Origin: a virus
Strand: one strand, 5' to 3'
IMG/VR virus record: IMGVR_UViG_3300045988_158116
Length of the DNA stretch: 37,724 bases
Below, piece by piece: positions 3,401 to 33,260 of the stretch. Positions within the stretch are counted from its first letter, which is position 1. Each line of letters begins with the position of its first letter. The notes beneath the pieces were generated by a model, which was not told the DNA's origin, made no database searches, and was given only the letters and a program-made list of their open reading frames with translations. The position numbers and the translations under genes were made by a program.

Positions 3401-3601
3401 TGGAACGGTAATGCCGAGCAGGGTTGTGTGAGCAGAGCAACGTGGTGACTGCTGCATGTGTTGTGCCAAATTGTGTGGCTTGCGCCTGAGGTTTTATTGC
3501 TTGTATGGCGGGCTGCACGAAATAGTGAATATTAACATGTTTATTAAAAGGAGTAGTGGCATGGCGGTGGTGGTGTGCGTTTGTGATGACGCTTGCAAAT
3601 T

Positions 3602-3627
3602 GCGGTTCGAGTCCGCGACTCGGCACA
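3602..3627 (+). repeat. Left 26-bp direct repeat (tRNA T-arm plus acceptor-3'-strand-like)
   Basis: Identical to 5736-5761. Reads as T stem/loop GCGG-TTCGAGT-CCGC, then ACTCGGC plus A. Confidence 0.85.
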
Positions 3628-3637
3628 AAATGGTGAC

Positions 3638-4762
3638 ATGTATATGGAAAAGGAAACTGCGTTTAGGGACTATGCCAAACATTTAGCTAAAAATGGTGAT
3701 GGCTGCAATTATGCTACCATTGGTAAAAGGCTTTGTGTGGCGCAGAGGTATCTTGATGAGGTTGAGGGCTTGACGCTGAAAGATTATAGAAAATGGCGCA
3801 AGGAGAATGCTCAGAAAATAGTGTTTGACCATGCGAATGTGTATGACCTTTTAAGTCCGTTTCTACAGTTTGTGGGTATAAATAAGTGCGGTAAACGGTC
3901 GCGCGAGCCTAAGCCCCTTGCGAGCAAAAAGGAGGTGAGCGAGAGTTGTGAAAGAGAGGTAAATGCTTTTGCCTTATGGTTGCAAAACAACAATGACATG
4001 AGCACTCACACCATACGCAGTTATATCACGGCAATGCGCGAATATTTTGCTTACGCTGACAAGGTTAGCAATGAATTGGTGCGTGCTTACATGTGTACCC
4101 TTACGGCACAAGGACTGAAGCCTAATACGGTTAATTTGCGGTTATGTGCAATTAGGGCTTTTGCTAAGATGAAGCGCAAACAGCTTGATGTAAAACGCAT
4201 AAAAATACACCGTGTGTTAGACCTTGAAAATGTTCCGAACGAGACAGAGTTTAGAAAGCTTACCGAATGGTTAAAGCAGCAAGGCAAGATGCGGTTTTAT
4301 TTTGCAGTGTTGGCATTTGGTTTGACTGGTGCTCGTATTAGTGAGATGCTGCAAGTGACGTGGGAACAGATTGAGACAGGCGAGGCTGTGATGATAGGCA
4401 AAGGGCGTAAGCAGCGTAGGTTGTTCTTCCCGAAACAATTTCAGCGTGAGGCCGTGCAATATGCCAAGGCTAATAATTTGCACGGGTTGTTAATGACAAA
4501 CAAAACGGGAGAGCCCATTACGAGCCGTGGTTTTTGCTCTATGCTCAAGATTTATGGCGCAAAGTGTGGCATAGATAAGTGCAAGATGCACCCTCATGCT
4601 TTTAGGCATATGTTCGCCAAGATGTATTTAAAGAAGTCGAAAGGTGACATTGCTCAGTTAAGTGCCTTGTTGGGGCATTCAAAATTAGACACTACACATA
4701 TTTACATTCAAAAAAGCAAAGATGAACAACGCAAAGAATATGATAGAATCGTTACGTGGTGA
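3638..4762 (+). CDS. Second tyrosine recombinase (XerC/XerD-like integrase)
   Basis: Motifs are GARISEML (Arg I), HPHAFRHMFA (H-x-x-R) and LLGHSKLDTTHIYI (His/Tyr). Start chosen at the ATG at 3638 or 3644, just after the left repeat, rather than the ORF-track start at 3593. Confidence 0.85.
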   Translation: MYMEKETAFRDYAKHLAKNGDGCNYATIGKRLCVAQRYLDEVEGLTLKDYRKWRKENAQKIVFDHANVYDLLSPFLQFVGINKCGKRSREPKPLASKKEVSESCEREVNAFALWLQNNNDMSTHTIRSYITAMREYFAYADKVSNELVRAYMCTLTAQGLKPNTVNLRLCAIRAFAKMKRKQLDVKRIKIHRVLDLENVPNETEFRKLTEWLKQQGKMRFYFAVLAFGLTGARISEMLQVTWEQIETGEAVMIGKGRKQRRLFFPKQFQREAVQYAKANNLHGLLMTNKTGEPITSRGFCSMLKIYGAKCGIDKCKMHPHAFRHMFAKMYLKKSKGDIAQLSALLGHSKLDTTHIYIQKSKDEQRKEYDRIVTW

Positions 4763-6015: not shown

Positions 6016-9000
6016 ATGATTAGTAAAGAAACGATTGACCTGGTGCTGGACCGCACGATCCTTGAGGACGTGGTGCGTGAGAGCGGTGTGGCGCTAACGA
6101 AGCGGGGTAAGGACTTGGTGGCTTGCTGTCCGTTTCACGAGGAGAAGACTCCGAGTTTTTATGTGTCGCCAAGTAGACAGTTGTGGTACTGCTTTGGTGG
6201 TTGCCAAGAAGGAGGCAACGTGATAAGTTATGTGATGAAGCGCGAGGGGCTGACGTTTGTAGAGGCTGTGAAGAGGCTTGCTGAACGTGCGCACATTGAG
6301 GTGGAGAACGATGCCACCGAGGATGCGAACACGGAGCAACAACGGCTGAAGCGCGAGGCGATGACGCGACTGAACAAGAAGGTGGCGGAGTTTTATGACT
6401 CGCTGCTGCACGATGGCAGTAATGCGGACGCGGTGACTGCGCTGAATTATGCGCACCAACGGTTTGGCAAGAAGTATGTGGAGGAGGCAAAAATGGGTTA
6501 TGCCCCTAACAAATGGAACACGCTGACTGAGTGGGCACGCAAGACGGGCGAGAGCCAAGAGTTGTTGATAGAACTTGGGCTGCTGAAGCGCAAGGAGGAG
6601 AATGGACGGGTGTATGACTTTTTGCGTGGACGATTGGTGATTCCGATTACAGACCGACGTGGCGAAGTGATAGGCTTTACTGCCCGTAACCTTGTGGACA
6701 ATGTGGACGCTGCTAAGTATGTGAACTCTCAGGAGAGCGAGGCGTATCATAAGGGTGACACGGTGTTTGGCATGAACGTGGCCTTTGCCCAGGCTCGCAA
6801 GGAGGAGCGCATGTATTTGGTTGAGGGTGCGCCTGATGCGATGAAGATGCACTCGGTGGGTATTGATAACGTGGTGGCTACGTTGGGTGGTAACTGGACG
6901 GAGAAGCAGTTTGAGTTAGTGAAAAAGGCTGCTACGAACGTGTGCTTTATTAACGATGCCGACCCTGTGCCTGTGGGCAAGCGTTATGGCACGGGCATTG
7001 GTTATGTGCTGCGCAATGGTGAGTTGGCCATGAAGCAGGGACTGAACGTGACGGTGCGCGAATTGCCTTGCAAAGAGGGTAACTTGAAGCAGGACCCTGG
7101 CGACTTTTTTACGACCAGCACAAGGCTGAATGAGCTAAAGGAGGAGGACTTTGTGACGTGGGCTGCGCAAAAGATTATAGACAAGGATGCTCCGAGCGAC
7201 CGACTGAGTGCAGCGCTAAAGCAAGTGGCTACGTTGGCATCGTATGTGGTTGATGACACGCTACTGGAGATGTTGATTGACGGCCTTAACAAGATACGCA
7301 GAGGTAAGGAGTTTTGGCGTGGACTGATACAGAAGGTGCGATGGGACCGCGAGAAGACGGATAAGCGCAAGAATGGCGAGATTGACCTTAGGGAGTATGG
7401 CTTCTATAAGGAGGCGGGCGGTTATTGGGGTCAGACGGAGAAGGGCTCGGAAATTCAGTGGAGCAACTTTACGATGCGCCCTGTGTTCCATATTAAGGAC
7501 GCTGATCAGCCTAAGCGCATCTTTTATATAAAGAATAATAAGGGTGCTGAAGATGTGGTTGAGATGTCGATTGAAGACTTGGTGAGTTTGAGCAAGTTTA
7601 GGCAACGCATTGAAAGTATTGGTAACTACATGTGGATGGCAGGTGACCGCGAACTGATGAAGCTCAAGACCTACCTCTATGAGAACACCGAGACCTCGCG
7701 ACTCATTAAGCAGTTGGGGTGGAACCAAGCAGGCTTTTATGCCTTTGGCAATGGTGTGTGGATGGATGGAACATTTAGAAAGGCTGATGAATTTGGGGTG
7801 TGCAAATTACAGAATGGTGATAATTGGTATATACCCGCAGCCTCGAAACTTTACAAGGAAGACCGTAAGAAGTTTGAACGTGAGCGCAAGTTTATTCATC
7901 AAACCTTGCAGAATGTGCCTTTTAGGGGGTATATGGAGGACTTTGTAATGGTGTATGGCAACAATGGTATAGTGGGTTTGTGTTATTGGTTGGCTGCCTT
8001 GTTTAGGGATGTGGTGACGGATAGCACACGCTCCTTTCCGCTGCTGAATTTGTTTGGTCCTAAGGGTTCGGGAAAGACTGAACTGGGTGCTGCGCTGATG
8101 GCGTTTTTTGTGAGCGACAATAAGGCGCCCAACTTGCGCAACTCTACGGCTACGGCACTGAACGACGACGTGGCTTTTGCCTCGAATGCTCTTGTGCATC
8201 TCGACGAGTATAAAAACGACATTCGCCCTGACAAGATTGAGTTTTTGAAGGGACTGTATGACGGTGTGGGACGTGTGAAGATGTCGGGTGCTGCGTTTGA
8301 CGCTCGCATTATGACGAGTGTGAAGAGCGGTGTGATAGTTTCGGGACAGGAAATGCCTACTGCTGACCCAGCATTGTTTTCGCGTTGTTTGTTCTTGTCG
8401 TTTCCTCGATCGGAGTTTAGCACCGAAGAGTGCCGACGCTTTGCAGCGCTACGCGAGGTGCAAAAGTTTGGTTTGTCGTTTTTGACGATTGAGGTGTTGA
8501 AGCATCGCAAGCACTTTGCAGCCAACTTTGCCGATAACTATGCTTTGGTGCGCGACGAGGTGAACCGTATGACGGATTATGCACGTTTGGACACTCGTAT
8601 TGTGGAGAATTGGTGTAAGGTGGCTGCAGCGTTTAAGGTGCTTGAGGCGAAGTTGGACTTTCCGTTTCACTATGCCGAGGTGTTGCGCTTGTGCGTGGAT
8701 GGTATCAAGACGCAGAACGACATATTGAACACGGGCAACGAGCTCGCTGTGTTCTGGACGGCTGTGGCTTACTTGAAGAACACGGGCGAGGTGTTTGCCA
8801 CTGCCGACTATAAGATAGCCACCTTGCAAACGCTGCGCACTACGAAGCAAGACTTTGACTTTGGCACTCCAAGGCGCGTGATCTACGTGAACAAGAGCCG
8901 ATTGTTTAGCCTCTACAAGCGTGCAGCTTTGCAAACGGGCGATTCGGCATTGCCTGAGGATTCGCTGAAGATATACTTAGAGAATGCCGACTACTTTTTG

Positions 9001-12762: not shown

Positions 12763-12949
12763 ACTACATTCACTACATTTTACTACAATGTTATAAAAGA
12801 TTGATTATTAAGGAGTTATGAAATGCGGAGGAGGGAAAAAAACTCACTACATTTGACTACAACTGACTACAACGAGAGTTGCTCTCACTACAATGTAGTG
12901 GGGTTGTAGTGACGTAAGTCGTTGAAAATCAAGTATGTAGTGTTGTAGT
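12763..12949. repeat. Iteron-like array: 7 direct ACTACA plus 4 inverted TGTAGT
   Basis: ACTACA at 12763, 12772, 12782, 12846, 12856, 12866 and 12887. TGTAGT at 12894, 12905, 12936 and 12944. Two triads have 9-10 bp spacing. Perfect palindrome CACTACAATGTAGTG at 12886-12900. Confidence 0.8.
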
Positions 12950-13152
12950 CAGTGCGATAACGAAAAAAACTACGCGTGTGCGCGAAAGATGCTGTTTGGG
13001 TGAGTAGGGCTGTTTACCCCTATAAACCCTGAATGGCGAGCGCTGCATGATGTGATTTTAGGCATAGCGCATGCAGTGCGTTTGCTCGCTATGGTTTTGG
13101 GTAAGGATTATTGCAAATGTATTTGTGTTTATTGTATTTGAAGTTTTTTTTG

Positions 13153-13160
13153 TAAATTTG
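13153..13160 (+). promoter_or_regulatory. -7 box TAAATTTG upstream of the packaging operon
   Basis: Matches TAnnTTTG. About 48 nt upstream of the ATG at 13208. Confidence 0.3.
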
Positions 13161-13207
13161 TGTGCGTATACATCCTTTTACTTATTCAGCTAAAATCTTT
13201 TTTATTG

Positions 13208-13699
13208 ATGAAAGACATTACCGTGCTATTACGTCTTGAGCCTTATCTACGCCAATGGCTTACCCACGCATTTGGCGAGCCTGTTCGGTTTCCTGCTCAA
13301 AGCTACGAAAACCACTTGTTGCTGCGTTTGGTGCAACGTGTGCCTCATGCGTCAACTATCGCAAATGAAGATAAAAACTCACATAAATGCGTTAGGGTGG
13401 TCATTCCCGACAGTGCGCATCGCCGTCCCGAATACTATCACCACCTATCGCGACGTGCCAATGCCAAGATGTGTGCAGCCTTAGTTAGCCTGTTCCGCAT
13501 CCACCTATGGAGCGATATTGCGCCCAAGATACATGCCGATGGACTGAACCGAGCCATCGACGATTGGTGCCAGAGTCAGGGCATAGACATAGACTATCGC
13601 GAAGGCGTGCGCCAAAAGTTTTACCGCATGCGCAGATCGTATGAGACCTATGGCATAATTTTAGGTAAAAAACACTGCCATAAGGTCGGTAAAAAATGA
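13208..13699 (+). CDS. Hypothetical protein immediately upstream of TerL (small-terminase or late-regulator candidate by position only)
   Basis: ORF 13160-13699. Start chosen at MKDITVLLRLEPY. No motif recognised. Confidence 0.55.
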   Translation: MKDITVLLRLEPYLRQWLTHAFGEPVRFPAQSYENHLLLRLVQRVPHASTIANEDKNSHKCVRVVIPDSAHRRPEYYHHLSRRANAKMCAALVSLFRIHLWSDIAPKIHADGLNRAIDDWCQSQGIDIDYREGVRQKFYRMRRSYETYGIILGKKHCHKVGKK

Positions 13700-13720
13700 A
13701 CAAACAAAATAAACATATTT

Positions 13721-15325
13721 ATGGAAGTATTTTTTAACCGCATGCAGCGCGAGGTGTGTGCCATCGACGCGCACACCAACGTGATAGTGGCAGGACGAGG
13801 CACAGGCAAGAGCGTGTTGCATGCTTGGATAAATCTGCGCAACTTTCAGCAGATGCCACGCAGTACCACCGCCTTTGTCACCCCCACCGCCATACGTGCC
13901 AAAACCAACACCTTACCATCGATGTTCCAACATTGGGAGGATTGGGGCTATCATCGGGGTGTGCATTGGGACATTGGACACCGTCCACCGCGAGCCCTTG
14001 GTTGGCCCGATCCCATTGTGGTGCCCGATAATTGGGAAAACGTCATCTCGTTCTACACGGGAGCCATTGGTCAGATAATCAGTCAAGACCGCGTGGGCAC
14101 AAGTAACTCAAAGAGTTTCGACTACATCGACATAGACGAAGCCAAGTTTGTAAACTTTGAGCGCCTTAAAGACGAAACCTTCCCTGCTAACCGCGGACAG
14201 CAGCGCGAGTTTGGTGACTTGCCCTTTCACCACGGCATGCTCGTTACAAGCGATATGCCTGTGACCAAAACAGGATCGTGGTTTATGCGCTATGAAAAAG
14301 ACCTCGACCCTGAACTCATTAGCACCATCGAAGCCCTAACAGCCGAAGAACTCTCGGTGAGTTGGCGCATTGCGCAAGGCGACACCACTCCCTACTTGCC
14401 TCGCAAACTTGCCGAGGTGCAACGTGTGCTCAGCACCTTGCGCAAGCATGCTACACTATTTAGGCGCTACTCCTCGCTCACCAACATCGAGGTGCTTGGC
14501 GAGGCATGGATCAAACAAATGCGTCGCGACTTGCCCCCAATGGTGTTTCGCACCAGCATTCTGTGTCAGTCGGTGAGCATACTGAAGGATGGCTTCTACT
14601 CGTCGATGCAACCGCGCAACAAGTATACAGCCACCGACCATAGCAAACTCGATGCCCTAGGCTACGACTTTAAAGCCATAGGCACAGCTGCCAACACCTG
14701 CAGGCTCGACTCCGACCTTATTGCCACTCACCCCCTCATCATAGCCTTCGACTTTAATGCCAACATCAACTGGCTTGTGTGCGGACAGGTAGACGAGGAC
14801 CGACGAAGGCTCAATGTGGTGAAGAGCTTCTACGTGAAGTACGACCGCAAGTTGCCCGAACTCGTGGCAGACTTTTGCCAATATTATGCACCCTTCCCAC
14901 TGCACGAAGTGATTTTTTATTACGATTCAACGGCTTTAGGGTCGAACTATGCGGTGAACGATCAAGACTTTCAGTGGGTGATTACGCATGAGTTGCAAAA
15001 GCACGGATGGCGTGTGCGCCCTGTGTATATAGGTGCCCCTATGCGCCACATGGAGAAGTACACACTCATTAACCGAGGCTTTGCAGGTCAAGCCCGATTG
15101 GTGCCCTACTTTAACGAGGCGCAGAACCAAGACCTATTGGTGTCGGTTCAAACCGCAGGCGTGTATAATGGCAAGAAGGATAAGCGAGGCGAGAAGTTGG
15201 CAGAGACCGAGGAGGACAAACTTGAGAGTCGTACGGATGGTAGCGATGCCTTCGATACCCTTTACATCGGTTGCGAGCGATTCCCGCAACAAGTTTTTGT
15301 GTTACGAGTGACAGGCGGTGGATAA
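13721..15325 (+). CDS. terL: Terminase large subunit
   Basis: 534 aa. Walker A VAGRGTGKS, Walker B-like DYIDIDEAKF, and a C-terminal nuclease-size domain. Sits at the head of the morphogenesis block. Confidence 0.85.
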   Translation: MEVFFNRMQREVCAIDAHTNVIVAGRGTGKSVLHAWINLRNFQQMPRSTTAFVTPTAIRAKTNTLPSMFQHWEDWGYHRGVHWDIGHRPPRALGWPDPIVVPDNWENVISFYTGAIGQIISQDRVGTSNSKSFDYIDIDEAKFVNFERLKDETFPANRGQQREFGDLPFHHGMLVTSDMPVTKTGSWFMRYEKDLDPELISTIEALTAEELSVSWRIAQGDTTPYLPRKLAEVQRVLSTLRKHATLFRRYSSLTNIEVLGEAWIKQMRRDLPPMVFRTSILCQSVSILKDGFYSSMQPRNKYTATDHSKLDALGYDFKAIGTAANTCRLDSDLIATHPLIIAFDFNANINWLVCGQVDEDRRRLNVVKSFYVKYDRKLPELVADFCQYYAPFPLHEVIFYYDSTALGSNYAVNDQDFQWVITHELQKHGWRVRPVYIGAPMRHMEKYTLINRGFAGQARLVPYFNEAQNQDLLVSVQTAGVYNGKKDKRGEKLAETEEDKLESRTDGSDAFDTLYIGCERFPQQVFVLRVTGGG

Positions 15326-15507
15326 CAGAGGTAGTGCATATTCCGCTAAAAAAAAGAGGGGGTGGCCCCCCCCGGGGGTGCAGGGCGTTGGTGGGTGGGA
15401 AAGGTGTGACACCGCACATTTTTAGCCTTCGGCTCCTGTCGAGATGCGTAAAAATGGGGAGAGTGAAGAAACTTAGGGTGGAAAAACTGAAGTAAGGTTT
15501 TGGGGGC

Positions 15508-15819
15508 GGTATTTGGATGGTATCTGGGCGGTATTTGGGTGGTTTTTGGGTGGTGTTTGGAAGGCTTTGAAATGGCTTTGAAATGGTATCGGCATTTCTT
15601 CGGAATGGTATCGGAATGGTATCGGAATGACTTCGGGGTGTTTTTGGGGTGTTTTTGTGGTGGTTTTGGGTGTGTTTTTGGGTGTGGTTTTGGGTGTGTT
15701 TTTGGGTGTGGTTTTGGGTGTGTGTTTTTTTTGTGTGTTTGGGTGGGTGTTCTTGGGTGTGTTTTTGGGTGTGTGGGGTGTGTTTTTGTGGGGTTGGGGG
15801 TGTGTTTGGGTGTCTTTTT
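15508..15819 (+). repeat. Degenerate 11-12-nt tandem repeat array ending in a 189-nt A-free G/T tract
   Basis: 11-nt register from 15508 (GGTATTTGGnn x5, GGCTTTGAAAT x2, GGTATCGGAAT units). This changes to 12 nt (GGTTTTGGGTGT/GTTTTTGGGTGT) from 15662. There is no A between 15631 and 15819, and only 4 C. Confidence 0.85.
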
Positions 15820-15890
15820 ATTCTTTTAGTTAAAGGTGTATCTTCGCCCTTGCAACATGCCACGTAGGGTGTTGTTACGAAAAAAACGAT

Positions 15891-16967
15891 ATGGCACGAA
15901 ATTATAACATAGACATTGACTCTTACATTGGGTATCCTATATCGAAGGGGTATGTGAAGAGCAAGCTTGAGCCGTTGAAGGGGAAGCCTTGCACGGTTCG
16001 CATCAACTCGTATGGAGGTGATGTGATGACGGCACTTGATATTCGCCAACAGTTTTTGGACCATGGGGATGTGACGGCTTACATAGTGGGCATGACTGCG
16101 AGTGCAGCCACGATCCTCGCCATGGGTGCTAAGAAGGTGGTGATGAGCCGTTATGCCCTGATGCTTGTACACCAGGCTTCGGGCTTTAGTGAGACTTGGG
16201 GGTATTACAACAAGGAGCAACTTGAAAGCAAGATTGCAGAACTTAGAAAGAACCAGGCGAAGCTTGACACGATTGACCGCGTGATAGCTTCGATTTATGC
16301 GGTGCGCAGTAAACGCGAAGCTAAGGAAATTGCTGAGTTGATGAGCGAAGAACGATGGATCACTGCAGAAGAGGCTTTGGAGTATGGGTTGATTGATGAG
16401 ATTGACCCCGACGAAGAAGAACAGCAACCCGAGGGCTTGAGTGCTTCGGCTCGCGAACATTTGGTGGCTTGTGGTTTTCCCTTGCCCGTTCGCGTTCGAC
16501 ACGAGGGTGTTGTACCCACACTCACTCCCGATGCTACTGCCAATGGGGTAGACACCGATTCGGCACTCAACAAGGTGGTAGGCTTTTTGCGCTCGCTGTT
16601 TGGTTCCATGCACACCGAAAGCACCGCCGAAAACGACACCGAAAACACAACAAACAATAAAAACGAAATGAACAAGAAGACAACGACGGTTGCGCTAACT
16701 TTGCTTTGCGCTACTCTTGGTTTGGAAAACTTAACAGCTGCTGAAGATGGCAGTGTTACCCTTAGTAAGGAACAACTAAATGCTGTGGAGGGTGCTCTTG
16801 CTGCATTTAAGAGTGAGAAGGAAGCAGCCGAAGCCAAGGTGAAAGAACTTGGTGCGCTCGATGGTGACACCACAGGCAAGGCAGGTCCTACAGCCGAAGC
16901 CGACGACAACACCCTTGCAGGTGCCGAGGCTATGAACTTTTACAACAAATTCAAGTCGATTATTTAA
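15891..16967 (+). CDS. ClpP-like prohead serine protease fused to a scaffold-like C-terminal region
   Basis: INSYGGDVMTALDI, GMTASAATILAMGA and MLVHQASG resemble S14/ClpP. The C-terminal half is acidic and coiled coil (EKEAAEAKVKEL). Confidence 0.8.
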   Translation: MARNYNIDIDSYIGYPISKGYVKSKLEPLKGKPCTVRINSYGGDVMTALDIRQQFLDHGDVTAYIVGMTASAATILAMGAKKVVMSRYALMLVHQASGFSETWGYYNKEQLESKIAELRKNQAKLDTIDRVIASIYAVRSKREAKEIAELMSEERWITAEEALEYGLIDEIDPDEEEQQPEGLSASAREHLVACGFPLPVRVRHEGVVPTLTPDATANGVDTDSALNKVVGFLRSLFGSMHTESTAENDTENTTNNKNEMNKKTTTVALTLLCATLGLENLTAAEDGSVTLSKEQLNAVEGALAAFKSEKEAAEAKVKELGALDGDTTGKAGPTAEADDNTLAGAEAMNFYNKFKSII

Positions 16968-16994: not shown

Positions 16995-17963
16995 ATGGCA
17001 AATACAATCACTACAGTGGGCGCATTGCAGAAGAGCGCCACAAAGTATGAAAAAGACCTTTTGATTATGCCTGTCACTGCTGCTCAAGCCACTTTGCAGC
17101 ACATGCAGGGCATTCCAGGTTTGACAGGCAACATTGTGCTTGGTCAACTCGATGGTGAGGCAGAACTTGGTCCTTACAAAAACACCCGTAAGGCCGACGG
17201 CAACTTTACCATTGCTCCGCGCGAGCTTGAGTTGTTCTTGGGCAACTGTGCCTACGGCTTCGACCCTAACGAAGTGTGGGGCACCATTTATGGCTCGCTC
17301 GTGACTCAGGGCGAGGGCTTGAAGGGAGTTGATATAAACAAGAGCATCTTGATGCTTGTGGCTGGCAAATTGGGACGAAAACTCAATATGGCCATTTGGA
17401 ACGCTAAGCGCAATGCCAATGGCGACTCCACCAAAGACCTCTTTAATGGTTTCGACACCATTACAGATACTGAGAAGACCGCTGGTAACCTCTCAGTTGA
17501 GAAGGGCAACTACATGGAACTTACCGAAGCCATTACAAGCGCCAATGCGGTAGACACGTTTAACTCCATCTTCGATGCAGCTAACGACGAGTTGAAGGGT
17601 CAGCAAGTAAAGATTTATTGCTCGAAAGAACAATACATGGCTTATAACCGCAACTACCAAATGTTGCATGGTGCTTTGCCCTATAACCAAGAGTTTAAGA
17701 AGACCTTCCTTGAAGGTACCGACAACCTTTGGGAGTTCTGCCCCTTGGCATCGAAGAAAGGCTCGCCTTACATCCACATTGCTCCGAAGAACAACATGGC
17801 ATACGGCTATGGCGCGGGCGAGAACCCCGCCGAGAAGTTGGCGATCGAGAAGTATGACTCTTGGAAACTGACGCTTGAGGCTGCAATGGCATTTGGTGTG
17901 CAGTTTAAGACCCTTAGCCCCGAAATGTTGCTGGTGGCAAAGTTGAAGGTAGGCGAAGTATAA
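16995..17963 (+). CDS. Major capsid protein candidate
   Basis: 322 aa, directly after the protease/scaffold gene. Called by position and size; no motif verified. Confidence 0.6.
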   Translation: MANTITTVGALQKSATKYEKDLLIMPVTAAQATLQHMQGIPGLTGNIVLGQLDGEAELGPYKNTRKADGNFTIAPRELELFLGNCAYGFDPNEVWGTIYGSLVTQGEGLKGVDINKSILMLVAGKLGRKLNMAIWNAKRNANGDSTKDLFNGFDTITDTEKTAGNLSVEKGNYMELTEAITSANAVDTFNSIFDAANDELKGQQVKIYCSKEQYMAYNRNYQMLHGALPYNQEFKKTFLEGTDNLWEFCPLASKKGSPYIHIAPKNNMAYGYGAGENPAEKLAIEKYDSWKLTLEAAMAFGVQFKTLSPEMLLVAKLKVGEV

Positions 17964-18578: not shown

Positions 18579-19099
18579 TCGATCAGATTAAAACCTACTT
18601 AAATGTGCCCGCTGCCGAACGCGATGTGGCTGCGGGCGCATTGCTTTTGCTCAAGTTGAACCGCAACCGTGTGCTTTATAATGGTGCTTGCATTGCGCCC
18701 AAGCGTTATGCGCCAGTGATTGAACATGAGTTGAAAAAGCACTTGCGCATTTTGCTCGATGGGCAGACCGCGCAAGGCATTGTGGAGATGGAGCACGAGG
18801 TGGTTCCTGTGGCAAAAGAGAGTTTAGACGAGGGCGCTCCCGTGGTGAGCACCGATGTTGACCATCCAGAGGGCACATACCGAGGTTGTAGGGCTGATCA
18901 CGACGAACTGCCCGAAGAAATCCGTGCGCTGTACGAGAAGAATGGGGAGATTTACTTTAAGATGAAACAGACGTTTGAAACGCTGAAGACTCTTGAAGAG
19001 GCTGCTCCTTGCGACCGCTACGAGCATTTGAAGGTGCTTAAGAGCTTGGACGAACAGTATAGGCGCAACTGGAAGAAGTATGATGAGTTTAAAAGATAG
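18575..19099 (+). CDS. Hypothetical virion-associated protein
   Basis: 174-aa ORF with a 4-nt overlap with the upstream gene. Its TAG stop is the first unit of the CTAGA array. Confidence 0.6.
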   Translation: MIDQIKTYLNVPAAERDVAAGALLLLKLNRNRVLYNGACIAPKRYAPVIEHELKKHLRILLDGQTAQGIVEMEHEVVPVAKESLDEGAPVVSTDVDHPEGTYRGCRADHDELPEEIRALYEKNGEIYFKMKQTFETLKTLEEAAPCDRYEHLKVLKSLDEQYRRNWKKYDEFKR

Positions 19100-19164
19100 A
19101 CTGGGCTAGACTGGGCTAGATTTACTAGAAGAACTAGATTTACTAGAAGGGCTAGAGAGGGACT
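19097..19164 (+). repeat. CTAGA-core tandem array 1 (7 units)
   Basis: TAGACTGGGC x2, then TAGATTTAC, TAGAAGAAC, TAGATTTAC, TAGAAGGGC, TAGAGAGGG. Period is 10 nt, then 9 nt. Confidence 0.85.
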
Positions 19165-22359: not shown

Positions 22360-22447
22360 TAGATGGCTAGATGGGCTAGATGAGCTAGATGGACTAGATA
22401 GACTAGATGGACTAGATAGACTAGATGGACTAGATGACTAGATAGAA
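22360..22447 (+). repeat. CTAGA-core tandem array 2 (10 units, strict 9-nt period)
   Basis: TAGATGGC, TAGATGGGC, TAGATGAGC, then alternating TAGATGGAC/TAGATAGAC. It starts in the codon after the endolysin TAA. Confidence 0.9.
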
Positions 22448-23956: not shown

Positions 23957-23961
23957 GAGAA

Positions 23962-24010
23962 CTAGAGGGGCTAGACGAACTAGAGGGGCTAGATGGGCTG
24001 GCGCTTGAGG
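23962..24010 (+). repeat. CTAGA-core array 3 (4 units) plus GGCTGGCGCTTGAGG module
   Basis: CTAGA at 23962, 23971, 23980 and 23989. GGCTGGCGCTTGAGG at 23996-24010. Confidence 0.85.
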
Positions 24011-24078: not shown

Positions 24079-25413
24079 ATGACAACTTCGGAGATTTTTG
24101 ACATACCGCAGACACCGTTTCAGGCGGTGATGCAAGAGGTGGCGGACACTACCTCGGTTTTTGACTCGCCTGGTGGACGTTTGCATGTGCGACCTGTGCC
24201 TGGGTTTGAGCATGAGATGTATGTGCCTTATGGCGATGACAACCAATTGCCCTATGAACTGATTGCGTTGGTGGGGGGAGACGAGGTGACGGCACAGAAT
24301 AAACTTTTTAATGTGCTGACCTGCTATGGGGCAGGACTGCGCATGGTGGATGCTGCATCGGGCGAGGTGACGCAAAACGCAGACGTGAAAAGTTGGATGC
24401 GCCGTCAGTTTATGCCCAGGTATATGCTTGACCAAATGACGGACATGAAATATTTTTACTACTCGGTGTGCGTGATCATTTTGAACCGCGAGGGAACGCG
24501 CATTAACCGTTTGGTACATAAGGAGGCTTGCTACTGCCGACTGGAGCAAGCGGATAAGCGTGGACGCATTGGGCATGTGTATTATGCAAATTGGCAGGAC
24601 TACCAAGAAACGCTGTCGGGTGTGGAAAGAATAGAGTTGTTGGATCCTGACGACCCTTATGGGGATTTGTGTGGGCGCATGGGAATTGACCCTGACACGC
24701 GACGACCTAATGGGCGACCTAAACAGCGGTGCAGAAAGTTTGCGATGCTGATGCGTTTCCCGACGGCTGGGTGCCAATATTACCCCGTTCCTTACTGGAG
24801 TGCGGTGTTAAGGGGTGGATCGTATGACGAGAAGCGTTTGATTTCGACTGGTAAGCGTGCGAAGCTTAGAAACACGACGAGTGTGAAGTATCAGGTGGAG
24901 ATTGAGCGTTCGTATTGGCAACGTATTTGCACTGAGGAGAACATTACGGATCCTGTGGAGATGCAGGAACGTGTGAAGCGCGAGAAGGAGAACATTAAGA
25001 ACTTTGTGTGCGGTGTGGAGAACTCGGGCAAGGCTTGGATTAGTGGCTACTATGTGAACCCTGATGGGCACGAGGTGCGCGATATTCGCGTGACGAACAT
25101 TGAGGGACAGAAGGAAGGTGGCGACTGGAACGAGGATGTGCAGGCTGCTGCGAACACGATTTGCTATGCTGACAATGTGCATCCTAACCTTGTGGGTGCT
25201 GTGCCTGGTAAGACGCAAACGAATAACTCGGGCTCGGATAAGCGAGAGTTATTCACGATGAAGCAGGCTTTGGAGATTGCTTTTCATGATATGCTGCTTG
25301 TGCCCTTGCATGTGGTGTGCTGGTTTAATGGGTGGACGGATGTGGTGCCACAGATACCGATGATTCAGCTGACTACGCTGGATAAGCATAAGGATGCGGA
25401 GGTGGTGAAATAG
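24079..25413 (+). CDS. Hypothetical virion protein (portal candidate by size only)
   Basis: 444 aa. No portal-sized gene follows TerL, so this is the best-sized candidate. No motif verified. Confidence 0.6.
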   Translation: MTTSEIFDIPQTPFQAVMQEVADTTSVFDSPGGRLHVRPVPGFEHEMYVPYGDDNQLPYELIALVGGDEVTAQNKLFNVLTCYGAGLRMVDAASGEVTQNADVKSWMRRQFMPRYMLDQMTDMKYFYYSVCVIILNREGTRINRLVHKEACYCRLEQADKRGRIGHVYYANWQDYQETLSGVERIELLDPDDPYGDLCGRMGIDPDTRRPNGRPKQRCRKFAMLMRFPTAGCQYYPVPYWSAVLRGGSYDEKRLISTGKRAKLRNTTSVKYQVEIERSYWQRICTEENITDPVEMQERVKREKENIKNFVCGVENSGKAWISGYYVNPDGHEVRDIRVTNIEGQKEGGDWNEDVQAAANTICYADNVHPNLVGAVPGKTQTNNSGSDKRELFTMKQALEIAFHDMLLVPLHVVCWFNGWTDVVPQIPMIQLTTLDKHKDAEVVK

Positions 25414-25525
25414 ATGGACTAGAGGAGCTAGAGAGACTAGACGGGCTAGACGGACTAGACGGGACTAGAGGGGATAGACGGGACTAGAGGGGCTGGCGCG
25501 ATGACTAGAGAGGGGTAGATGAGAC
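25411..25525 (+). repeat. CTAGA-core array 4 (11 units) with an internal GGCTGGCGCGATGA module
   Basis: Six TAG triplets at 25411, 25420, 25429, 25438, 25447 and 25456 are in frame with the upstream stop. The module lies at 25491-25504. Confidence 0.9.
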
Positions 25526-27881: not shown

Positions 27882-27981
27882 TAGATGGGTAGATGGGCTA
27901 GACGGACTAGAAGGCTGGCGCGATGAATGGGGCTAGATGGGCTAGATTGACTAGAGGGACTAGAAGGGCTGGCGCTTGAGG
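27882..27981 (+). repeat. CTAGA-core array 5: two sub-arrays, each closed by a GGCTGGCGC module
   Basis: TAGA units at 27882-27911, then GGCTGGCGCGATGA (27913-27926). Units at 27934-27966, then GGCTGGCGCTTGAGG (27967-27981). Confidence 0.9.
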
Positions 27982-28895: not shown

Positions 28896-31800
28896 TTGTA
28901 TATGAATAGCAATGACATTAAGACCGTGACGCTTGCGATAAACTCGGAGCAAGCGCAACGCAAACTTGACGAGATTAATAAAAGGCTTGAGGAGGCACGT
29001 AAGAAGAAGTTGGAGGCTTTTGATCGTGGCGACGGTAAGGCTTTGCAGGCTTATGCGAAGGAGATAAAGAGTTTGGAGGCTCAAAGCGCACGTTTGCAGA
29101 GCCGTGCATCGACGGTGACCCATGTTTTGAACAACTTGGATAAGGCGACTCCGCGTGAACTGAAGGCTACGATTAAGGAGATTAACCGAGAGTTGAACAG
29201 CGGAAGTGTGGAGCGTAACTCGGAACAATGGAAGGCGCTGACACGTGGACTGCAGGAGGCGAATGCTGAACTGAAGAAGATTAAAGATGAGCAGAAGGCT
29301 GCGGAGAAGAGCCTTGGAGAACCTAATAAAATTTCAGAATGGGGTACTAATTGGAGTGGCGTGACCGTTATTCTTGATAGTGCCTTGAACAAACTGAGTG
29401 CAGCCAAAGAGTTTATGGAGCAGTTCGTGAATGAGTATGCTGAAATGGCTGAGCACGAGTCGGGTGTGGCAAAGTATACGGGGCTTGCAAAGGAAGATGT
29501 GGACGCGCTGAATGAAAGTTTTAAGCGTTTGGACACTCGTACACCGCGTGAGAAGTTGAATGACCTTGCTGCGGATGCTGGACGCTTGGGTATTCAGAGC
29601 AAGGAGGCTGTGCTTGACTTTGTGGAAGCTGCAGACCAAATAAATGTGGCTCTTGGCGAGGACTTGGGCGAGGATGCAGTGAAGAACATTGGTAAGTTGG
29701 CGCAGATGTTTGGCACTGACAAGACGATGGGACTGAAGCAAGCTATGTTGTCGACTGCAAGTGTGATTAACGAGTTGGCGCAAAGTTCGAGCGCGAGTGA
29801 GGGGTACATTATGGAATTTACGAACCGCTTGGCAGGTGTGGGTAATCAGGCAGGAATGTCACAAGCACAGTTGATGGGTCTTGCCTCGGTGATGGACCAA
29901 AACCAAGTGGCGGTGGAGAAAGGCGCTACGGCATTGCAGAATGTGTTGACGGCACTGTTTAAGGACCCTGCAAAGATGGCAAAGGCTGCAGGGCTTGAGG
30001 TGGAGGCATTCACCAAGAAACTTTCGGTGGATGCGAATGGTGCATTGTTGGAATTTTTGCAAGCACTGAATAGTGCAGGAGGCATGGACCGACTGACGCC
30101 AATGCTCGCTGAGATGGGACTAAGCGGTGCTGGTGTGACGCAAACACTCTCGACGCTTGCAGGAAAGCTGGGCGATGTGAAGGTGGCACAGACTGAGGCT
30201 GCAAGAGCCTTTGAGGAGGGCACATCATGTACAAATGAAGCTGCGCAAGCAAACCATACGGCACAGGCAGAATTGGAGAAGGCACAGAAGAAGGTGAAGG
30301 ACCTGCGTGTGGAACTTGGGCAAAGATTGTATCCTGTGTTTACGGGTATGAATAATGCGGTGGTGGCTGCTGCGCCTGTATTGAGACGTCTTATTAGTTT
30401 GCTTGGTGTGGTGGTGAACTTTGTGGGCGAGAATGCGCGTGCGATAGTGACAGCAACGGTGGCTGTGACAACTTTTACGGCTGTGATGAAATTGCACTTG
30501 ACGTGGCAAGCCATTTGCAAAGCATGGACGACGGCATGGACTGTGGTGACGAACATTCAGACTGCAGCGACGGTGGCTTTGACGGCTGCTCAAACTGCCT
30601 TGAATGCTGCGATAAAAGCCAATGGTTTTGCTGCACTTGCTTCGCTCATTTTATCGGCAGTTGCTGCGCTTGTTACTTGGGCTTTTGTGAGCAATAGTGC
30701 GACGGAGGCTGAGGAGAAGAACACGAAGGCTAAGAAGGCTAATGCTTCGGCTACGGACGAACAACGCCGTAAGCAAGAATTGCTGAACGAAGTGAAGAAG
30801 GCGCAAGCTGACAGCACGAAGAATGAGCGTGCGCAGATTGAGATGTTGACGGGGATTATTCGTGATAACTCTGCGAGCATAGATGATAGACGTGCTGCGA
30901 TAGCTAAGTTGCAACAGATTGTGCCAGGGTATCATGCCTCGATTAGTTCGAGCGGTGTGTTGATTGAGAAGAACACAAAGGCGATTGATGACTATATTGC
31001 TCAACTTGACCGTTTGGCTTTGGCGCAAGCTGTGTTTGAGAAGATACAGGAGAATGCGAAAAAGCAGATGGACATTGACAGAGCCATTGATTCTTGGAAT
31101 AATGCTATTGCTAAGCGCGAAGGGGAGATGAAGAAGCCTGGGCATGAGAGTCGCACTGAGGGACCTGGTATTACCTTGACAATGCCTGGTGGCAAGAAGG
31201 TGACGAGCAAAGTTGAAACGAATTTTACGAGAATTGAAGATGAGCGCAAGCTAAATTATGATAAGAGTAGGCTAAACTTTTGGACGAATAAACGAAAGGA
31301 GGCGGAAAAAGACAAACAATGGTATATTGACTATTTGAAAAAGCAAGGTGCTTGGGGTGCATATACTAAGATAGTAGCAAATGGTGGTGTGACTTCAGCG
31401 TTGGGAGGTGTGCCGACGTTTAGTCCTACTGCAGGTGGTGGAACAGGTGGCAACCATGGTGGTGGAACAGGTGGCAGCCATGGTGAGACGGACTTGAAGA
31501 AGAAGGAGCGTGAGAAGTTGGAGAAAGAGGCAGAAAAGCAACGCTTGGTGGCAAAGACGCAGTATGATGCGGGACTTATTGACCATCGTGAATATTCAGC
31601 CCAAAAATTGGATATTGACGCGAAGCTTTATGCTGATGAACGCGACCTATACGACAAAAACTCTGAAGAATGGGTGAAATTTGAGCAAAAGCGACTTGAC
31701 GTGAAGAATGAAACACGCAAGGAGAACCATGCTTGGAGTATCCATGAGTTGGACGTGGAGGAGAAGGAAGAATTGGAGGTTGCTAAGAAGAATTATCTTA

Positions 31801-33260
31801 ACGGTACGGTGACGGAGGAGCAGTATGAGAAGAAGAAAAGCGAGATAAAATTGAACTACCTGAAGCGTCGTGCTGCGATGAGTAAACTTTATGGGCAAGA
31901 GGAGGCTGCTGCAAAGTATGAGAGCGAATATGACGAGGCGGTAGAGGCTGATGCTTTGCAGAGAAGAAAGGAATTTTGGCAAAAGGTGGAGACGCTGAGA
32001 AAGGACTATGAGCAGAAGGGGGCAAAGGAGCGTATGGACATTGAATTGCAGATGTTGGACGCTGTGTATAATGCTACGGACGAGACGGGAAAACGCATTG
32101 GCGAGATTACGGATGCGGAGTATGAGCGGTTGAAGAAGCTCATTGGGCTGAAATATAATGGGCTTGATGGTAGTGCGAATGTTGATGGCACGGGAGAGAT
32201 TGCTGATGAACGCAGAAAGAAAGCGCAACAGGCATTGAGCGATGCTGGATATGGTAAGGACTCGGGGGCGAAGAGTGTGGATGCTTCGGTGGACTTTGGC
32301 TTTACTGGTGTGGCAAAGGCTGCAAATGATATTGCAGACACGCGGAAGGTATATGACAACTTGAAGGAGATGCGCGATAAGGACTTAATTAGTGAGCAGA
32401 CTTATCATGATGCTTGTAAAGAGTTGGCTAAGAAGCGTTTTGATAATTTTCAGAACATGGCTGCTGCCTCGTTTTCTGCGGTGAATGCTATTATGAGTTC
32501 TGCCTCGCAACTGTTCCAAGCGCAACAGCAAGAGGAAGAGGCTAAGGTGACGGCAAAGTATGATGCTGAGATTAAGGCTGCTGGACAGAACTCTGCGAGG
32601 GGTAAGCAGTTGGAGGAACAGAAGCAGAAGGACTTGGCTAAGATTAAGAATAAGTATAACAAGAAGATGATGGCCGTGGAGCTTGCTCAGGCTGTGGCGC
32701 AAACTGCGATGAATGCTATTATGGCTTATGGCTCGGTTGTGAAGATTCCGATTGTTGGTCCTGCCTTGGCGGTGGCTGCTGCAGCTGCTGCTACGGCTGC
32801 GGGTATGATTCAGATTGCTACGATTAAGAAGCAGCATGCTGCGCAGAGTGAGGGCTACTATGAGGGTGGCTTTACGGGTGGTAACAGATGGCGACGCACG
32901 GCTGGTGTGGTGCATGAGGGTGAGTTCGTGGCGAACCATGAGGCGGTGAGGAACCCGAATGTGTTGCCTGTGTTGCAGCTGATTGACCATGCGCAACGCA
33001 CGAACCGCATTGCTAGGCTGACGGCTGCGGATGTGAGTAGGGCTATTGCTGCTCCGCTTGCTACGTCGGCTAACACGGCTGCTACGGCTGATGTGGCTGC
33101 TCTGCAACTGGCTGACGGGGGAGCGAATGGCGCGACGAATGAGGTGCTGACGCGACTGACGGAGCAGATGGACCGGGGCATTAAGGCTGTGGTGGTGATT
33201 GATGGGCCTGATGGACTTGATAGACAATGGAGTAATTATAACAAAATGAAGAGACAATGA
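28896..33260 (+). CDS. Tail tape measure protein
   Basis: 1454 aa and the largest ORF. It has a TP901-type TMP-core-like segment (AADAGRLGIQSKEAVLDFVEAADQINVALGEDLGEDAVKNIGKLAQMFG). It also has hydrophobic segments, long coiled coils and a GGGTGGNHGGGTGGSHG repeat. TTG at 28896 or ATG at 28902. Confidence 0.9.
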   Translation: MYMNSNDIKTVTLAINSEQAQRKLDEINKRLEEARKKKLEAFDRGDGKALQAYAKEIKSLEAQSARLQSRASTVTHVLNNLDKATPRELKATIKEINRELNSGSVERNSEQWKALTRGLQEANAELKKIKDEQKAAEKSLGEPNKISEWGTNWSGVTVILDSALNKLSAAKEFMEQFVNEYAEMAEHESGVAKYTGLAKEDVDALNESFKRLDTRTPREKLNDLAADAGRLGIQSKEAVLDFVEAADQINVALGEDLGEDAVKNIGKLAQMFGTDKTMGLKQAMLSTASVINELAQSSSASEGYIMEFTNRLAGVGNQAGMSQAQLMGLASVMDQNQVAVEKGATALQNVLTALFKDPAKMAKAAGLEVEAFTKKLSVDANGALLEFLQALNSAGGMDRLTPMLAEMGLSGAGVTQTLSTLAGKLGDVKVAQTEAARAFEEGTSCTNEAAQANHTAQAELEKAQKKVKDLRVELGQRLYPVFTGMNNAVVAAAPVLRRLISLLGVVVNFVGENARAIVTATVAVTTFTAVMKLHLTWQAICKAWTTAWTVVTNIQTAATVALTAAQTALNAAIKANGFAALASLILSAVAALVTWAFVSNSATEAEEKNTKAKKANASATDEQRRKQELLNEVKKAQADSTKNERAQIEMLTGIIRDNSASIDDRRAAIAKLQQIVPGYHASISSSGVLIEKNTKAIDDYIAQLDRLALAQAVFEKIQENAKKQMDIDRAIDSWNNAIAKREGEMKKPGHESRTEGPGITLTMPGGKKVTSKVETNFTRIEDERKLNYDKSRLNFWTNKRKEAEKDKQWYIDYLKKQGAWGAYTKIVANGGVTSALGGVPTFSPTAGGGTGGNHGGGTGGSHGETDLKKKEREKLEKEAEKQRLVAKTQYDAGLIDHREYSAQKLDIDAKLYADERDLYDKNSEEWVKFEQKRLDVKNETRKENHAWSIHELDVEEKEELEVAKKNYLNGTVTEEQYEKKKSEIKLNYLKRRAAMSKLYGQEEAAAKYESEYDEAVEADALQRRKEFWQKVETLRKDYEQKGAKERMDIELQMLDAVYNATDETGKRIGEITDAEYERLKKLIGLKYNGLDGSANVDGTGEIADERRKKAQQALSDAGYGKDSGAKSVDASVDFGFTGVAKAANDIADTRKVYDNLKEMRDKDLISEQTYHDACKELAKKRFDNFQNMAAASFSAVNAIMSSASQLFQAQQQEEEAKVTAKYDAEIKAAGQNSARGKQLEEQKQKDLAKIKNKYNKKMMAVELAQAVAQTAMNAIMAYGSVVKIPIVGPALAVAAAAAATAAGMIQIATIKKQHAAQSEGYYEGGFTGGNRWRRTAGVVHEGEFVANHEAVRNPNVLPVLQLIDHAQRTNRIARLTAADVSRAIAAPLATSANTAATADVAALQLADGGANGATNEVLTRLTEQMDRGIKAVVVIDGPDGLDRQWSNYNKMKRQ

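Follow-up and report, generated by a model that had tools for sequence, protein, structure and literature searches.

A hypervariable G/T-rich minisatellite beside a probable cos site in a temperate Prevotella siphophage

The interval between the terminase and protease genes

This work concerns a tandem array of short repeats in the temperate Prevotella siphophage IMGVR_UViG_3300045988_158116 (IMG/VR). The array lies between the gene for the large terminase subunit (TerL) and the gene for a ClpP-like prohead protease. The stretch that we analysed, here called the window, is 37,724 nt long. An exact overlap of 55 nt between its ends shows that the genome, of about 37.67 kb, is complete and was assembled as a circle; all the long open reading frames (ORFs) lie on the plus strand. 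The gap between the two genes measures 565 nt. A first-pass annotation, made from the letters of the window, had remarked on half a kilobase of non-coding DNA at this point in the morphogenesis operon, and the measured gap bears this out. The gap falls into three parts (table 1): a conserved element directly after TerL, then the array, which fills most of the gap, and finally a promoter-like stretch before the protease gene.

How is the array constructed? It is a compound tandem repeat, with a period of 11 nt that gives way to one of 12 nt. Tandem Repeats Finder resolved 5.2 copies with a period of 11 in block I, 2.2 copies of GGCTTTGAAAT in block II, 4.4 copies of AATGGTATCGG in block III and 11.3 copies with a period of 12 in block IV (score 170). 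The autocorrelation of the 11-nt part peaks at lags 11, 22 and 33 (0.71, 0.67 and 0.62, respectively), and that of the part beyond it at lags 12 and 24 (0.66 and 0.64). Block I has super-periods of 22 and 33 in addition to 11. The last 189 nt of the array (15631–15819) contain no A, four C, 85 G and 100 T. Taken as a whole the array holds 19 runs of three or more G and 13 runs of four or more T. In windows of 100 nt its G+T content is as high as 100%, a value unique in a genome that averages 54.6%; C makes up 10% and G 38% of the entire gap. For the repeats and the A-free tract, the coordinates and composition given by the first-pass annotation proved exact, and its description of a phased tract of extreme strand asymmetry stands.

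At 189 nt the A-free run is the longest of the window, the runner-up being 43 nt. The background against which it has to be set is a genome with the same strand skew as the array. On the plus strand G exceeds C in nearly every 1-kb window (mean skew about 0.23), only 13001–15000 being flat or slightly negative, and the fourfold-degenerate sites of the genome are 65.5% G+T. Because A-free units of 11–12 nt were amplified in tandem, the run does not represent 189 independent events.

Could the array encode protein? An ORF of 109 codons spans it, and in one relative (L165) a gene caller fused this ORF to the protease. The array-spanning ORF has no match in Pfam or PHROGs. We reject a coding array: the open frames are a by-product of the missing A, and the length differences between alleles, described below, are not multiples of three. 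Rfam gave no match at gathering score in the window and only noise (E above 5) in 15200–16000. None of the titles and abstracts consulted in the literature pointed to a comparable tract in Prevotella or Bacteroides phages.

Table 1. Features of the window (positions in nt; the dot marks a feature without strand assignment).
Feature	Position	Strand	Basis or remark
Tyrosine integrase, two genes	293–1567 and 3593–4762	+	annotation scan
Methyltransferase-like gene			among annotated genes of the window
DnaG-type primase, 1056 aa	6016–9186	+	annotation scan
dUTPase gene			among annotated genes of the window
DUF5053 protein gene			among annotated genes of the window
ORF163 (163 aa)	13208–13699	+	directly 5′ of TerL, constant partner of this TerL family
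TerL	13721–15325	+	matches phrog_2, terminase large subunit
Conserved TerL-linked element, probable cos region	15333–15495	.	nhmmer, comparison of relatives
Box 1, CATATTCCGC	15337–15346		within conserved element
G/C hairpin	15353–15373		within conserved element; G5-TGG-C8-G5 stretch at 15355–15379
Intrinsic-terminator-like hairpin and T8 run	15353–15373	-	GGGGGGGGCCACCCCCTC then TTTTTTTT; inside conserved element
Box 2, GCAGGGCGTTGGTGGGTGGG	15380–15399		within conserved element
Putative cohesive-end 10-mer, GGCGTTGGTG	15384–15393	.	terminase would cut in it or a few nt from it
Further hairpin	15404–15417		within conserved element
Array, 11-nt part	15497–15630	+	Tandem Repeats Finder, autocorrelation, unit parsing
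Block I, (GGYGGTATTTG)n	15504–15560	+
Block II, (GGCTTTGAAAT)2	15563–15586	+
Block III, (GGAATGGTATC)n	15582–15629	+
Array, A-free G/T part	15631–15819	+	(GGGGTGTTTTT)2, then 12-nt units, then irregular G/T
Block IV	15638–15774	+	GGGGTGTTTTT, then GGGTGTGKTTTT (12 nt); position is that of the 12-nt units GGGTGTGTTTTT/GGGTGTGGTTTT
Irregular G/T tail of array	up to 15819	+	terminal GGGTGTCTTTTT
Bacteroidetes-type promoter-like site for head genes	15812–15846	+	read from sequence
-33-like T-run GTCTTTTTA, 19 nt, then -7-like box TATCTTCG	15839–15846 (box)	+	one mismatch to TAnnTTTG
ClpP-like prohead (head maturation) protease	15891–16967	+	phrog_2976 and phrog_94, E ~1e-42; labelled PF00574
Major capsid protein candidate (probable capsid gene)	16995–17963	+	directly after protease
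9-nt CTAGA arrays	19097–19161, 22360–22443, 23959–23999, 25411–25494, 27882–27970		intergenic
Tape-measure protein	28896–33260	+	annotation scan

Variation of the array among relatives

A search with TerL returned 115 related loci from Bacteroidales phages and prophages, and tblastn matched terminases that are annotated as such in records of phages. One contig, from an uncultured Prevotella sp., carries a TerL with a 100% match; the farther relatives are prophages of Prevotella, Alloprevotella, Phocaeicola, Bacteroides and other Bacteroidales. The phage genomes deposited in GenBank yielded no near-identical phage, only distant relatives of TerL.

If the flanking genes are so similar among the closest of these relatives, does the array resemble them in this respect? 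We extracted it, with fixed flanks on both sides, from 22 loci in IMG/VR, JGI and ENA metagenomes, GTDB genomes and Logan assemblies. These loci contain 21 different alleles of 286–452 nt (mean 348, standard deviation 40), and in 10 of the 22 the TerL protein is 100% identical to that of the window. The window and L161 are identical over 600 nt of flank on both sides, and their sole difference is two 12-nt units. When the alleles are parsed unit by unit, they differ largely by the gain or loss of whole units, and the array turns over faster than substitutions accumulate in its flanks. The allele lengths show no preference modulo 3, the three residue classes holding 3, 9 and 9 alleles. Nor do they cluster by helical phase at periods from 10 to 12 (Rayleigh p above 0.08 throughout). 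On this ground a helical-phase lock between the flanks is rejected, and there is no precise constraint on their spacing. We conclude that the array is a head-to-tail, non-coding, hypervariable minisatellite that changes mostly by whole-unit gain and loss. It has the properties of a variable-number tandem repeat (VNTR): a head-to-tail unit of 10–100 nt, copy-number polymorphism and freedom from coding constraint.

Two types of allele, A and B, have block I in common, in 3 to about 11 copies and abutting the conserved element. The type-B alleles (L006, L012, L125, L127 and L130), from phages at about 82% average nucleotide identity (ANI) to the window, have different 11-nt units (e.g. GGTATTGGGAT) and an A-rich interruption, and in them the A-free G/T part gives way to 13-nt units, GGTGTGTTTGCAA. 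They contain 15–18% A, so the A-free property is not conserved.

The array is specific to one shallow clade of Prevotella phages, in which its flanks are unusually conserved. It was present in every locus of this clade that was examined with both flanks. In sister lineages, at about 73% DNA identity, the conserved element is kept and the G/T array is absent. Its place is taken in L007/8/10/11 by one or two small ORFs, which have a promoter and a terminator of their own, and in L014, L082 and L083 by long hairpins of 7-mer repeats. L007/8/10/11 and L014, though they lack the array, retain both the conserved element and a promoter-proximal GTGTCTTTTA motif. Free variation and absence from otherwise identical phages were two of the signs that, in the first-pass annotation, would speak against a function. 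The first is seen in the number of units and partly in their sequence; the second is seen in the sister lineages and never within the clade.

The hairpin arms consist of tandem 7-mers (TGTGCAA/ATGTGAG; AAGTAAT/AAGTATT) at L014:7603-7710 and 7903-8010, L082:4800-4930 and L083:7600-7800. Several more distant relatives have tandem repeats of 19–23 nt within 1.5 kb downstream of TerL.

Every allele was taken from a short-read assembly, and the contigs of L122, L127, L130 and L131 break inside the array. The overall diversity of alleles is nevertheless too large for an artefact, because the unit sequences differ as well as the counts.

The conserved element after TerL

What is the element that separates TerL from the array? 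A hidden Markov model of the element (nhmmer), together with a regular expression, finds matches 90–200 nt behind TerL, even in lineages where TerL identity has fallen to 57%. The element also follows TerL in Phocaeicola-type prophages, where the protease and capsid genes precede TerL. As it comes after TerL in different gene orders, it travels with the terminase gene and not with the head genes. Two boxes, CATAT-CCGC and AGGGC..TGG.GG, are invariant in 24 divergent sequences; in lineages farther from the window 30 nt separate them. Lineages that share about 82% ANI are 97–100% identical in this element. In the relatives two hairpins after box 2 covary, with 73.8% of cells paired against 32–36% in slid controls and a covariation score of 0.20 against 0.03–0.14; the second of them is not evident in the window itself. 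The element may also be a structured RNA: its hairpins covary, and Rfam holds no match to it.

Some further observations belong here. In the Phocaeicola-type relatives (loci compared L020-L063, L087-L111) TerL is preceded, at a distance of about 4.3 kb, by the protease and capsid genes, which in the window lie downstream of it. The element also occurs at L096:7727-7832, L015:6549-6654, L098:3911-4016 and, in the Polaribacter phage Leef_1, L132:2960-3020, with boxes CATATWCCGC and GCGTAGGGCNNTGGGGG about 30 nt apart. The poly-C and poly-G lengths of its G/C hairpin vary among alleles (C6–C8), and this hairpin, with the A8 run that precedes it, can be read as a terminator on the minus strand only.

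Two contigs break within the element, in box 2. The first, IMGVR_UViG_3300029796_000019 (36,926 nt), ends at the equivalent of window position 15383 and starts at 15394, and so lacks exactly GGCGTTGGTG. It starts with the whole array; thus it broke in unique sequence and not in the repeat. The missing 10-mer fits a 3′ cohesive end, because blunt-ending removes the overhang. The second, an ENA contig of 1.5 kb (L125), is an inverted chimera with its junction at 15387/15388. Natural DNA ends are over-represented in inverted chimeric contigs.

A third indication comes from the cultured phage Leef_1, the TerL of which is homologous to that of the window. The Leef_1 record stops 83 nt beyond its TerL, with CATATTATCT-N30-CGTAGGCCACGGCGTTGT as its last letters. 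Both boxes recur there, at the spacing that the Phocaeicola prophages also have. When aligned on AGGSC, the end of this record falls within 3 nt of the start of IMGVR_UViG_3300029796_000019. The program PhageTerm called the ends of Leef_1 Cos 3′ (PMC8776804). Of 25 viral contigs of the Phocaeicola type, not one starts at the cos-like site; the majority are likely to be assemblies of prophages or metagenomes. On the strength of the two contig breakpoints and the Cos 3′ terminus of Leef_1, we regard the element as probably a cohesive-end (cos) site with a 3′ overhang. It is strongly suggested that the array starts about 100 nt inside the left cohesive end, directly upstream of the start of the head genes. 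It would extend from roughly +104 to +426 relative to the cut as we infer it.

Chi-like protection of the end was set aside. A nuclease that entered at the putative left end would meet the plus-strand G-rich motifs in the wrong orientation, judged by the polarity of RecBCD and Chi, and the Bacteroidales Chi may differ.

Recombination around the array

We compared the window with two type-B loci, L006 and L012, at a resolution of 100 nt. Identity is about 81% through most of TerL and 92% in the window at 14500. It is 97–100% from about 14600 to the array, 91–96% from the array to about 16430, and about 60% thereafter. The result is a mosaic tract (about 14550–16430) centred on the region of the cos and the array, 91–100% identical in a background of 60–81%. 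The raised identity implies that a recently exchanged tract surrounds this region; as the identities to the left and right differ, a junction lies at or in the array. In several relatives TerL is 98–100% and the protease 79–91% identical. Such an exchange would fit recombination stimulated by the terminase cut, with the array as the favoured zone of misalignment and crossover. The mosaic junction does not show that the array is selected for recombination.

Curvature, G-quadruplex potential and the adjacent promoter

The first-pass annotation had predicted strongly curved DNA. In the wedge model of Bolshoy and Trifonov, with the end-to-end ratio as the measure, the array contains the second most curved windows of the genome at 60–150 bp (ratio 0.73–0.86, top 0.1–2%). 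Over 300 bp, however, it is unremarkable (ratio 0.85, 19th percentile). The excess vanishes at this length because tracts that recur every 11–12 bp give the DNA a superhelical and not a planar path; their period is 11–12 nt (13 in type B), not 10.5. At 150 bp 20 of the 21 alleles lie in the top 1% for curvature (0.1–1% at 100–150 bp), the position of the maximum moving from one to the next. The allele of the window is about 2.4 standard deviations more curved than its mononucleotide shuffles (z about -2.4). The predicted curvature of the array is moderate; it stands out over short windows, in nearly all alleles, and is not exceptional at 300 bp.

The most curved DNA of the genome lies elsewhere, at 58–350, immediately before the first integrase gene; its ratio over 150 bp is 0.44, and it is a plausible arm region of the phage attachment site attP. 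That the array itself is attP is unlikely, the integrase genes being 10 kb away and the strongest curvature standing beside them.

The first-pass annotation had also claimed G-quadruplex (G4) potential for the tract. Motifs with relaxed loops (12 or fewer) do occur within the array, but there is no canonical motif (four runs of G3 or more, loops of 7 or fewer) within 15497–15819. The G4Hunter score reaches 1.5 or more only at 15754–15816, with a maximum of 2.04 at 15775–15800 and a mean of 0.98 over the array. By these predictions the potential of the array is weak. A canonical motif is found at 15374–15399, in the cos-like element and outside the array.

Beyond the array the TATCTTCG box lies 44 nt before the ATG of the protease gene. 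The gap of the window has no perfect TAnnTTTG. At the homologous position L007/8/10/11 have a perfect TAcaTTTG with GTGTCTTTTA upstream. We read the site in the window as a putative promoter for the head genes. A weak plus-strand hairpin with a T-run stands upstream of the array, at 15404–15423. The plus-strand RNA of the array folds weakly, through G–U pairs (-46.8 kcal/mol for 323 nt), and the minus-strand RNA is essentially unstructured (-6 kcal/mol).

The 11-mer in an unrelated phage

Does the unit of block I occur in any other phage? Outside the lineage its dimer, GGTATTTGGGYGGTATTTGGG, was found in a single viral contig, L171 (IMGVR_UViG_3300028048_003175), a phage of 98 kb. Here GGGCGGTATTTGGGCGG occurs four times in 270 nt (L171:7268-7530), the 11-mer TTTGGGCGGTA forming tandem dimers 54–90 nt apart. 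They lie inside an ORF (L171:7059-8039) of the replication and recombination module, after genes for AAA_24, SNF2-type helicase and VRR-NUC proteins. The 11-nt repeat is out of codon phase, being read as PKYR and then as PNTA, and must therefore be a signal at the level of DNA. The orthologous region of a relative (L172:6257-6496) carries different 11-nt phased repeat dimers, as would be expected of iterons whose specificity has diverged. In these phages of 98–102 kb the repeats have the appearance of gene-embedded origin iterons. No homologue of the L171:7059-8039 protein is encoded in the window. Across 1.8 Mb of related loci the block-I motif has no further occurrence, nor has its 12-mer any elsewhere in the genome of the window. 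The shared 11-mer keeps an iteron-like reading of the array alive without establishing it.

Other features of the genome

ORF163, the partner of TerL, has no match in Pfam or PHROGs and no known domain. Its AlphaFold model (mean predicted local distance difference test score, pLDDT, 85.8) has no match in the PDB and no recognisable DNA-binding fold; the sole structural match, in a viral fold library, is an uncharacterised protein of Leef_1. Its position makes ORF163 a candidate small terminase, which may have a novel fold. The attempts to identify it as such through Pfam, PHROGs, a PDB fold search and the viral fold library failed. Between the lineages with type-A and type-B arrays it is the most divergent stretch (54–82% DNA identity).

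A promoter-like box, TAaaTTTG, lies at 13153, ahead of the ORF163–TerL operon. Upstream of it, in the intergenic DNA at 12770–12953, are about seven direct and inverted copies of TCACTACATTT / TGACTACAAC, which could be an operator-like or terminase-related site.

Five further arrays, of a 9-nt unit containing CTAGA (e.g. GGACTAGAT), lie in intergenic DNA, each immediately behind the stop codon of a structural gene. TAGA[CTG]G[GA] is found 47 times on the plus strand and never on the minus strand. Across close relatives the first of these arrays ranges from 60 to 117 nt. For the 700 C-terminal residues of the primase there is no solved relative, and PHROGs labels are only primase or unknown. 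No tRNA or transfer-messenger RNA was found in the window.

Interpretation

What, then, is the array for? The balance tips modestly towards its being a non-coding compound minisatellite, a VNTR remodelled in copy number, that acts as spacer or architectural DNA near the probable cos. Degenerate 11-nt units of GG and a T-tract, with derivatives of 12 and 13 nt, would occupy the spacer between the probable cos after TerL and the start of the head-gene cluster. Units would be gained and lost through slipped-strand mispairing and through misaligned annealing or recombination, probably stimulated by the double-strand end that the terminase makes nearby. Their sequence would drift towards G+T because of the genome-wide strand bias. 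The array would not be read base by base. It would serve as length-tolerant spacer or architectural DNA, moderately curved, poor in C and incapable of hairpins or stop codons. If it influenced packaging or the promoter next to it, it would do so through such bulk properties. The CTAGA arrays, being other variable intergenic minisatellites of the same genome, support this interpretation. Such a pattern of variation speaks against a nucleoprotein site that depends on a precise sequence and leaves room for a bulk role as architectural or spacer DNA.

Several points weigh on the other side. Despite the rapid turnover no allele is shorter than 286 nt, and every allele keeps the G/T bias and a period of 11–13 nt; this minimum length and the kept bias and period hint at selection for presence or length. 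The G+T content of the array (87–100%) exceeds the neutral expectation of 65%. Block I is retained in both types of allele, and as L171 shares its 11-mer, a protein that reads the unit may exist. The copy numbers of single alleles may be wrong, given the short-read assemblies, and the cos assignment draws on two contigs and on homology to one phage with software-predicted ends.

The strongest competitor, which we consider unlikely but far from idle, is an iteron-like platform for a protein. The 11-nt units, lying on approximately one face of the DNA, would be bound cooperatively or wrapped, either by the small terminase, as a cosB-like anchor beside the cut, or by a regulator of the head promoter. 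Each unit would be one binding module, so that their number would be free to vary. The period of 11 and the super-periods of block I accord with this, as does the persistence of block I, always abutting the cos-like element, in both allele types. The array lies on one side of the putative cut, as does the cosB of lambda, and has never been lost within the clade. ORF163 is most diverged where the array types differ, while the cos element and the 3′ end of TerL are 97–100% identical, which recalls the Nu1–cosB specificity of lambda and 21. In L171, moreover, the block-I 11-mer is a repeat at the DNA level. Against a platform stand the degeneracy of the units and the unrelated sequences of the blocks, a roughly threefold range of copy number among phages with identical TerL protein, and the 13-nt units of type B, which do not stay in helical phase. 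Sister lineages that share the cos element package their DNA without any array; the equivalent of the single HK97 site falls in the conserved, non-repeated element; the 12-mer of block I recurs nowhere else in the genome; and ORF163 has no recognisable DNA-binding fold.

In a more specific form of this alternative, also doubtful, the array is a length-plastic platform at the chromosome end, and a phage or host protein polymerises on its TTTGGG-type 11-nt units beside the conserved cos. That protein would be the candidate small terminase or a late regulator, and turnover of units would tune or diversify packaging or late expression. The L171 11-mer, read as an iteron, would then imply a shared DNA-binding specificity. 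The first-pass annotation had likewise suggested a packaging site. The suggestion fits the probable location, next to the putative cos, but the units are degenerate and variable and the array is missing from lineages with the same cos-like element.

Might the array act as RNA? It could be a G/U-rich, C-poor linker, free of hairpins, that lets transcripts from the terminase promoter (TAaaTTTG, 13153) read through without Rho-dependent or intrinsic termination, or it could regulate through an RNA G-quadruplex. We judge this improbable. The lineage of the window has no strong plus-strand terminator after TerL and only an imperfect -7 box, and in L007 a terminator and a perfect TAcaTTTG go with a C-rich gap; the low C and high G of the gap, the weak plus-strand fold and the G4Hunter maximum of the array point the same way. 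However, the hairpin and T-run at 15404–15423 stand upstream of the array, and type-B alleles are neither A-free nor equally C-poor in the stretches that would matter for the function. This explanation accounts for the composition but not for the tandem periodicity, and the rut preferences of Rho in Bacteroidales are assumed from E. coli.

It is more improbable still that the array is a recombination hotspot selected as such, in which a G-quadruplex or R-loop of the G-rich non-template strand, or GT-rich pairing, promotes the exchange of head modules. The first-pass annotation had named a recombination hotspot as a candidate role, and the mosaic boundary does coincide with the array, with TerL conserved and the protease diverged in several relatives, and runs of G3 or more are frequent. 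Selection for exchange is not demonstrated by this. The neighbouring cos cut would by itself explain raised recombination, the array holds no canonical G4 motif, the effect could be a by-product and not a function, and the boundary is resolved in only two lineage comparisons.

A replication origin or cis-replication region, with iterons read by the 1056-aa primase-type protein, is very improbable. Phased direct repeats of 11 and 22 nt would suit iterons, and the ori and cis-replication region (crr) of P4 and the ori of lambda would be the parallels. The 11-mer dimer recurs four times in a replication-module gene of an unrelated phage, whose relative has different 11-nt repeats. The array, however, stands between packaging and head genes, 6.3 kb distant from the primase gene; its flanks are G-rich or a short promoter-like T-run, with no adjacent AT-rich unwinding element; the GC skew has no inflection along the genome; the window has no homologue of the L171 protein; and the sister lineages do without the array. 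Scarcely credible, finally, is an assembly artefact or a low-complexity gene: short-read assemblers do break in the array and the 109-aa ORF does cross it, but more than 30 independent contigs from different samples and assemblers have the same architecture, and the lengths and open frames are as described above.

Significance and comparison with known systems

The array is a hypervariable locus in an otherwise 95–100% identical gut phage and may serve as a strain-level marker across people or time. It also leads, time and again, to broken contigs and wrongly called ORFs in metagenome assemblies. The cos-like element with its two invariant boxes may matter more than the array, for it spans a wide family, from Bacteroidales prophages to phages of marine Flavobacteriia. 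If the cos is confirmed, genome ends and packaging mode would become predictable for many uncultured Bacteroidota phages. If the array binds a protein, it would be an unusual packaging or regulatory site with a freely variable number of modules.

The parC centromere of plasmid R1 and the centromere of pSK41 are tandem iterons of 10–11 bp, bound by ParR around a promoter. Like them, the array has about ten or more 11-bp direct repeats that abut a promoter, in a geometry suited to a protein solenoid; unlike theirs, its units are not conserved. Those long ORFs of the window that were scanned against Pfam or PHROGs, a subset of all its ORFs, gave no match to ParR, ParM or ParA. In lambda the iterons of ori are embedded in the initiator gene O. 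With gene-embedded iterons of this kind, as seen in L171, the array has in common the 11-mer of block I, but its units form one uninterrupted array, outside genes and far from the replication genes.

Nearer in position are the short-repeat arrays SRL and SRR, which Dunn and Studier in 1983 reportedly described beside the terminal repeats of T7. Their role in end processing is still unclear. They too are short imperfect repeats, spaced at about 12 nt, inside a genome end and ahead of the first promoters. T7, however, has direct terminal repeats and 7-bp cores in fixed number, whereas the phage described here probably has 3′ cohesive ends and its repeats are hypervariable in copy number.

The cosB of lambda (R3-I1-R2-R1) lies just inside cosN, on one side of the cut, and comprises three defined 16-bp R sites and an IHF bend within about 120 bp. 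In HK97, the best-studied 3′-cos phage, the small terminase recognises one site of 15 bp, at +15 to +29 (PMC11331095). The window resembles both in having repeated or bent DNA inside the putative cut, on one side only, and in a conserved cleavage region next to which the neighbouring segment and the candidate small subunit diverge. It differs in its 21–32 degenerate units, variable in number, at about +104 to +426 and dispensable in sister lineages. Defined, conserved repeats that all phages with the same cos need, as in the cosB of lambda, were not found.

With the VNTRs that arise by slipped-strand mispairing in bacteria and phages, the array shares degenerate head-to-tail units, gain and loss of whole units, a non-coding position and an allele of its own in nearly every genome sampled. 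In comparison with the usual VNTR it is compound, with at least five families of units of 11, 12 and 13 nt, and has an extreme G/T strand bias. It also keeps a fixed position between a cos-like element and a promoter, and its length is bounded between 286 and 452 nt.

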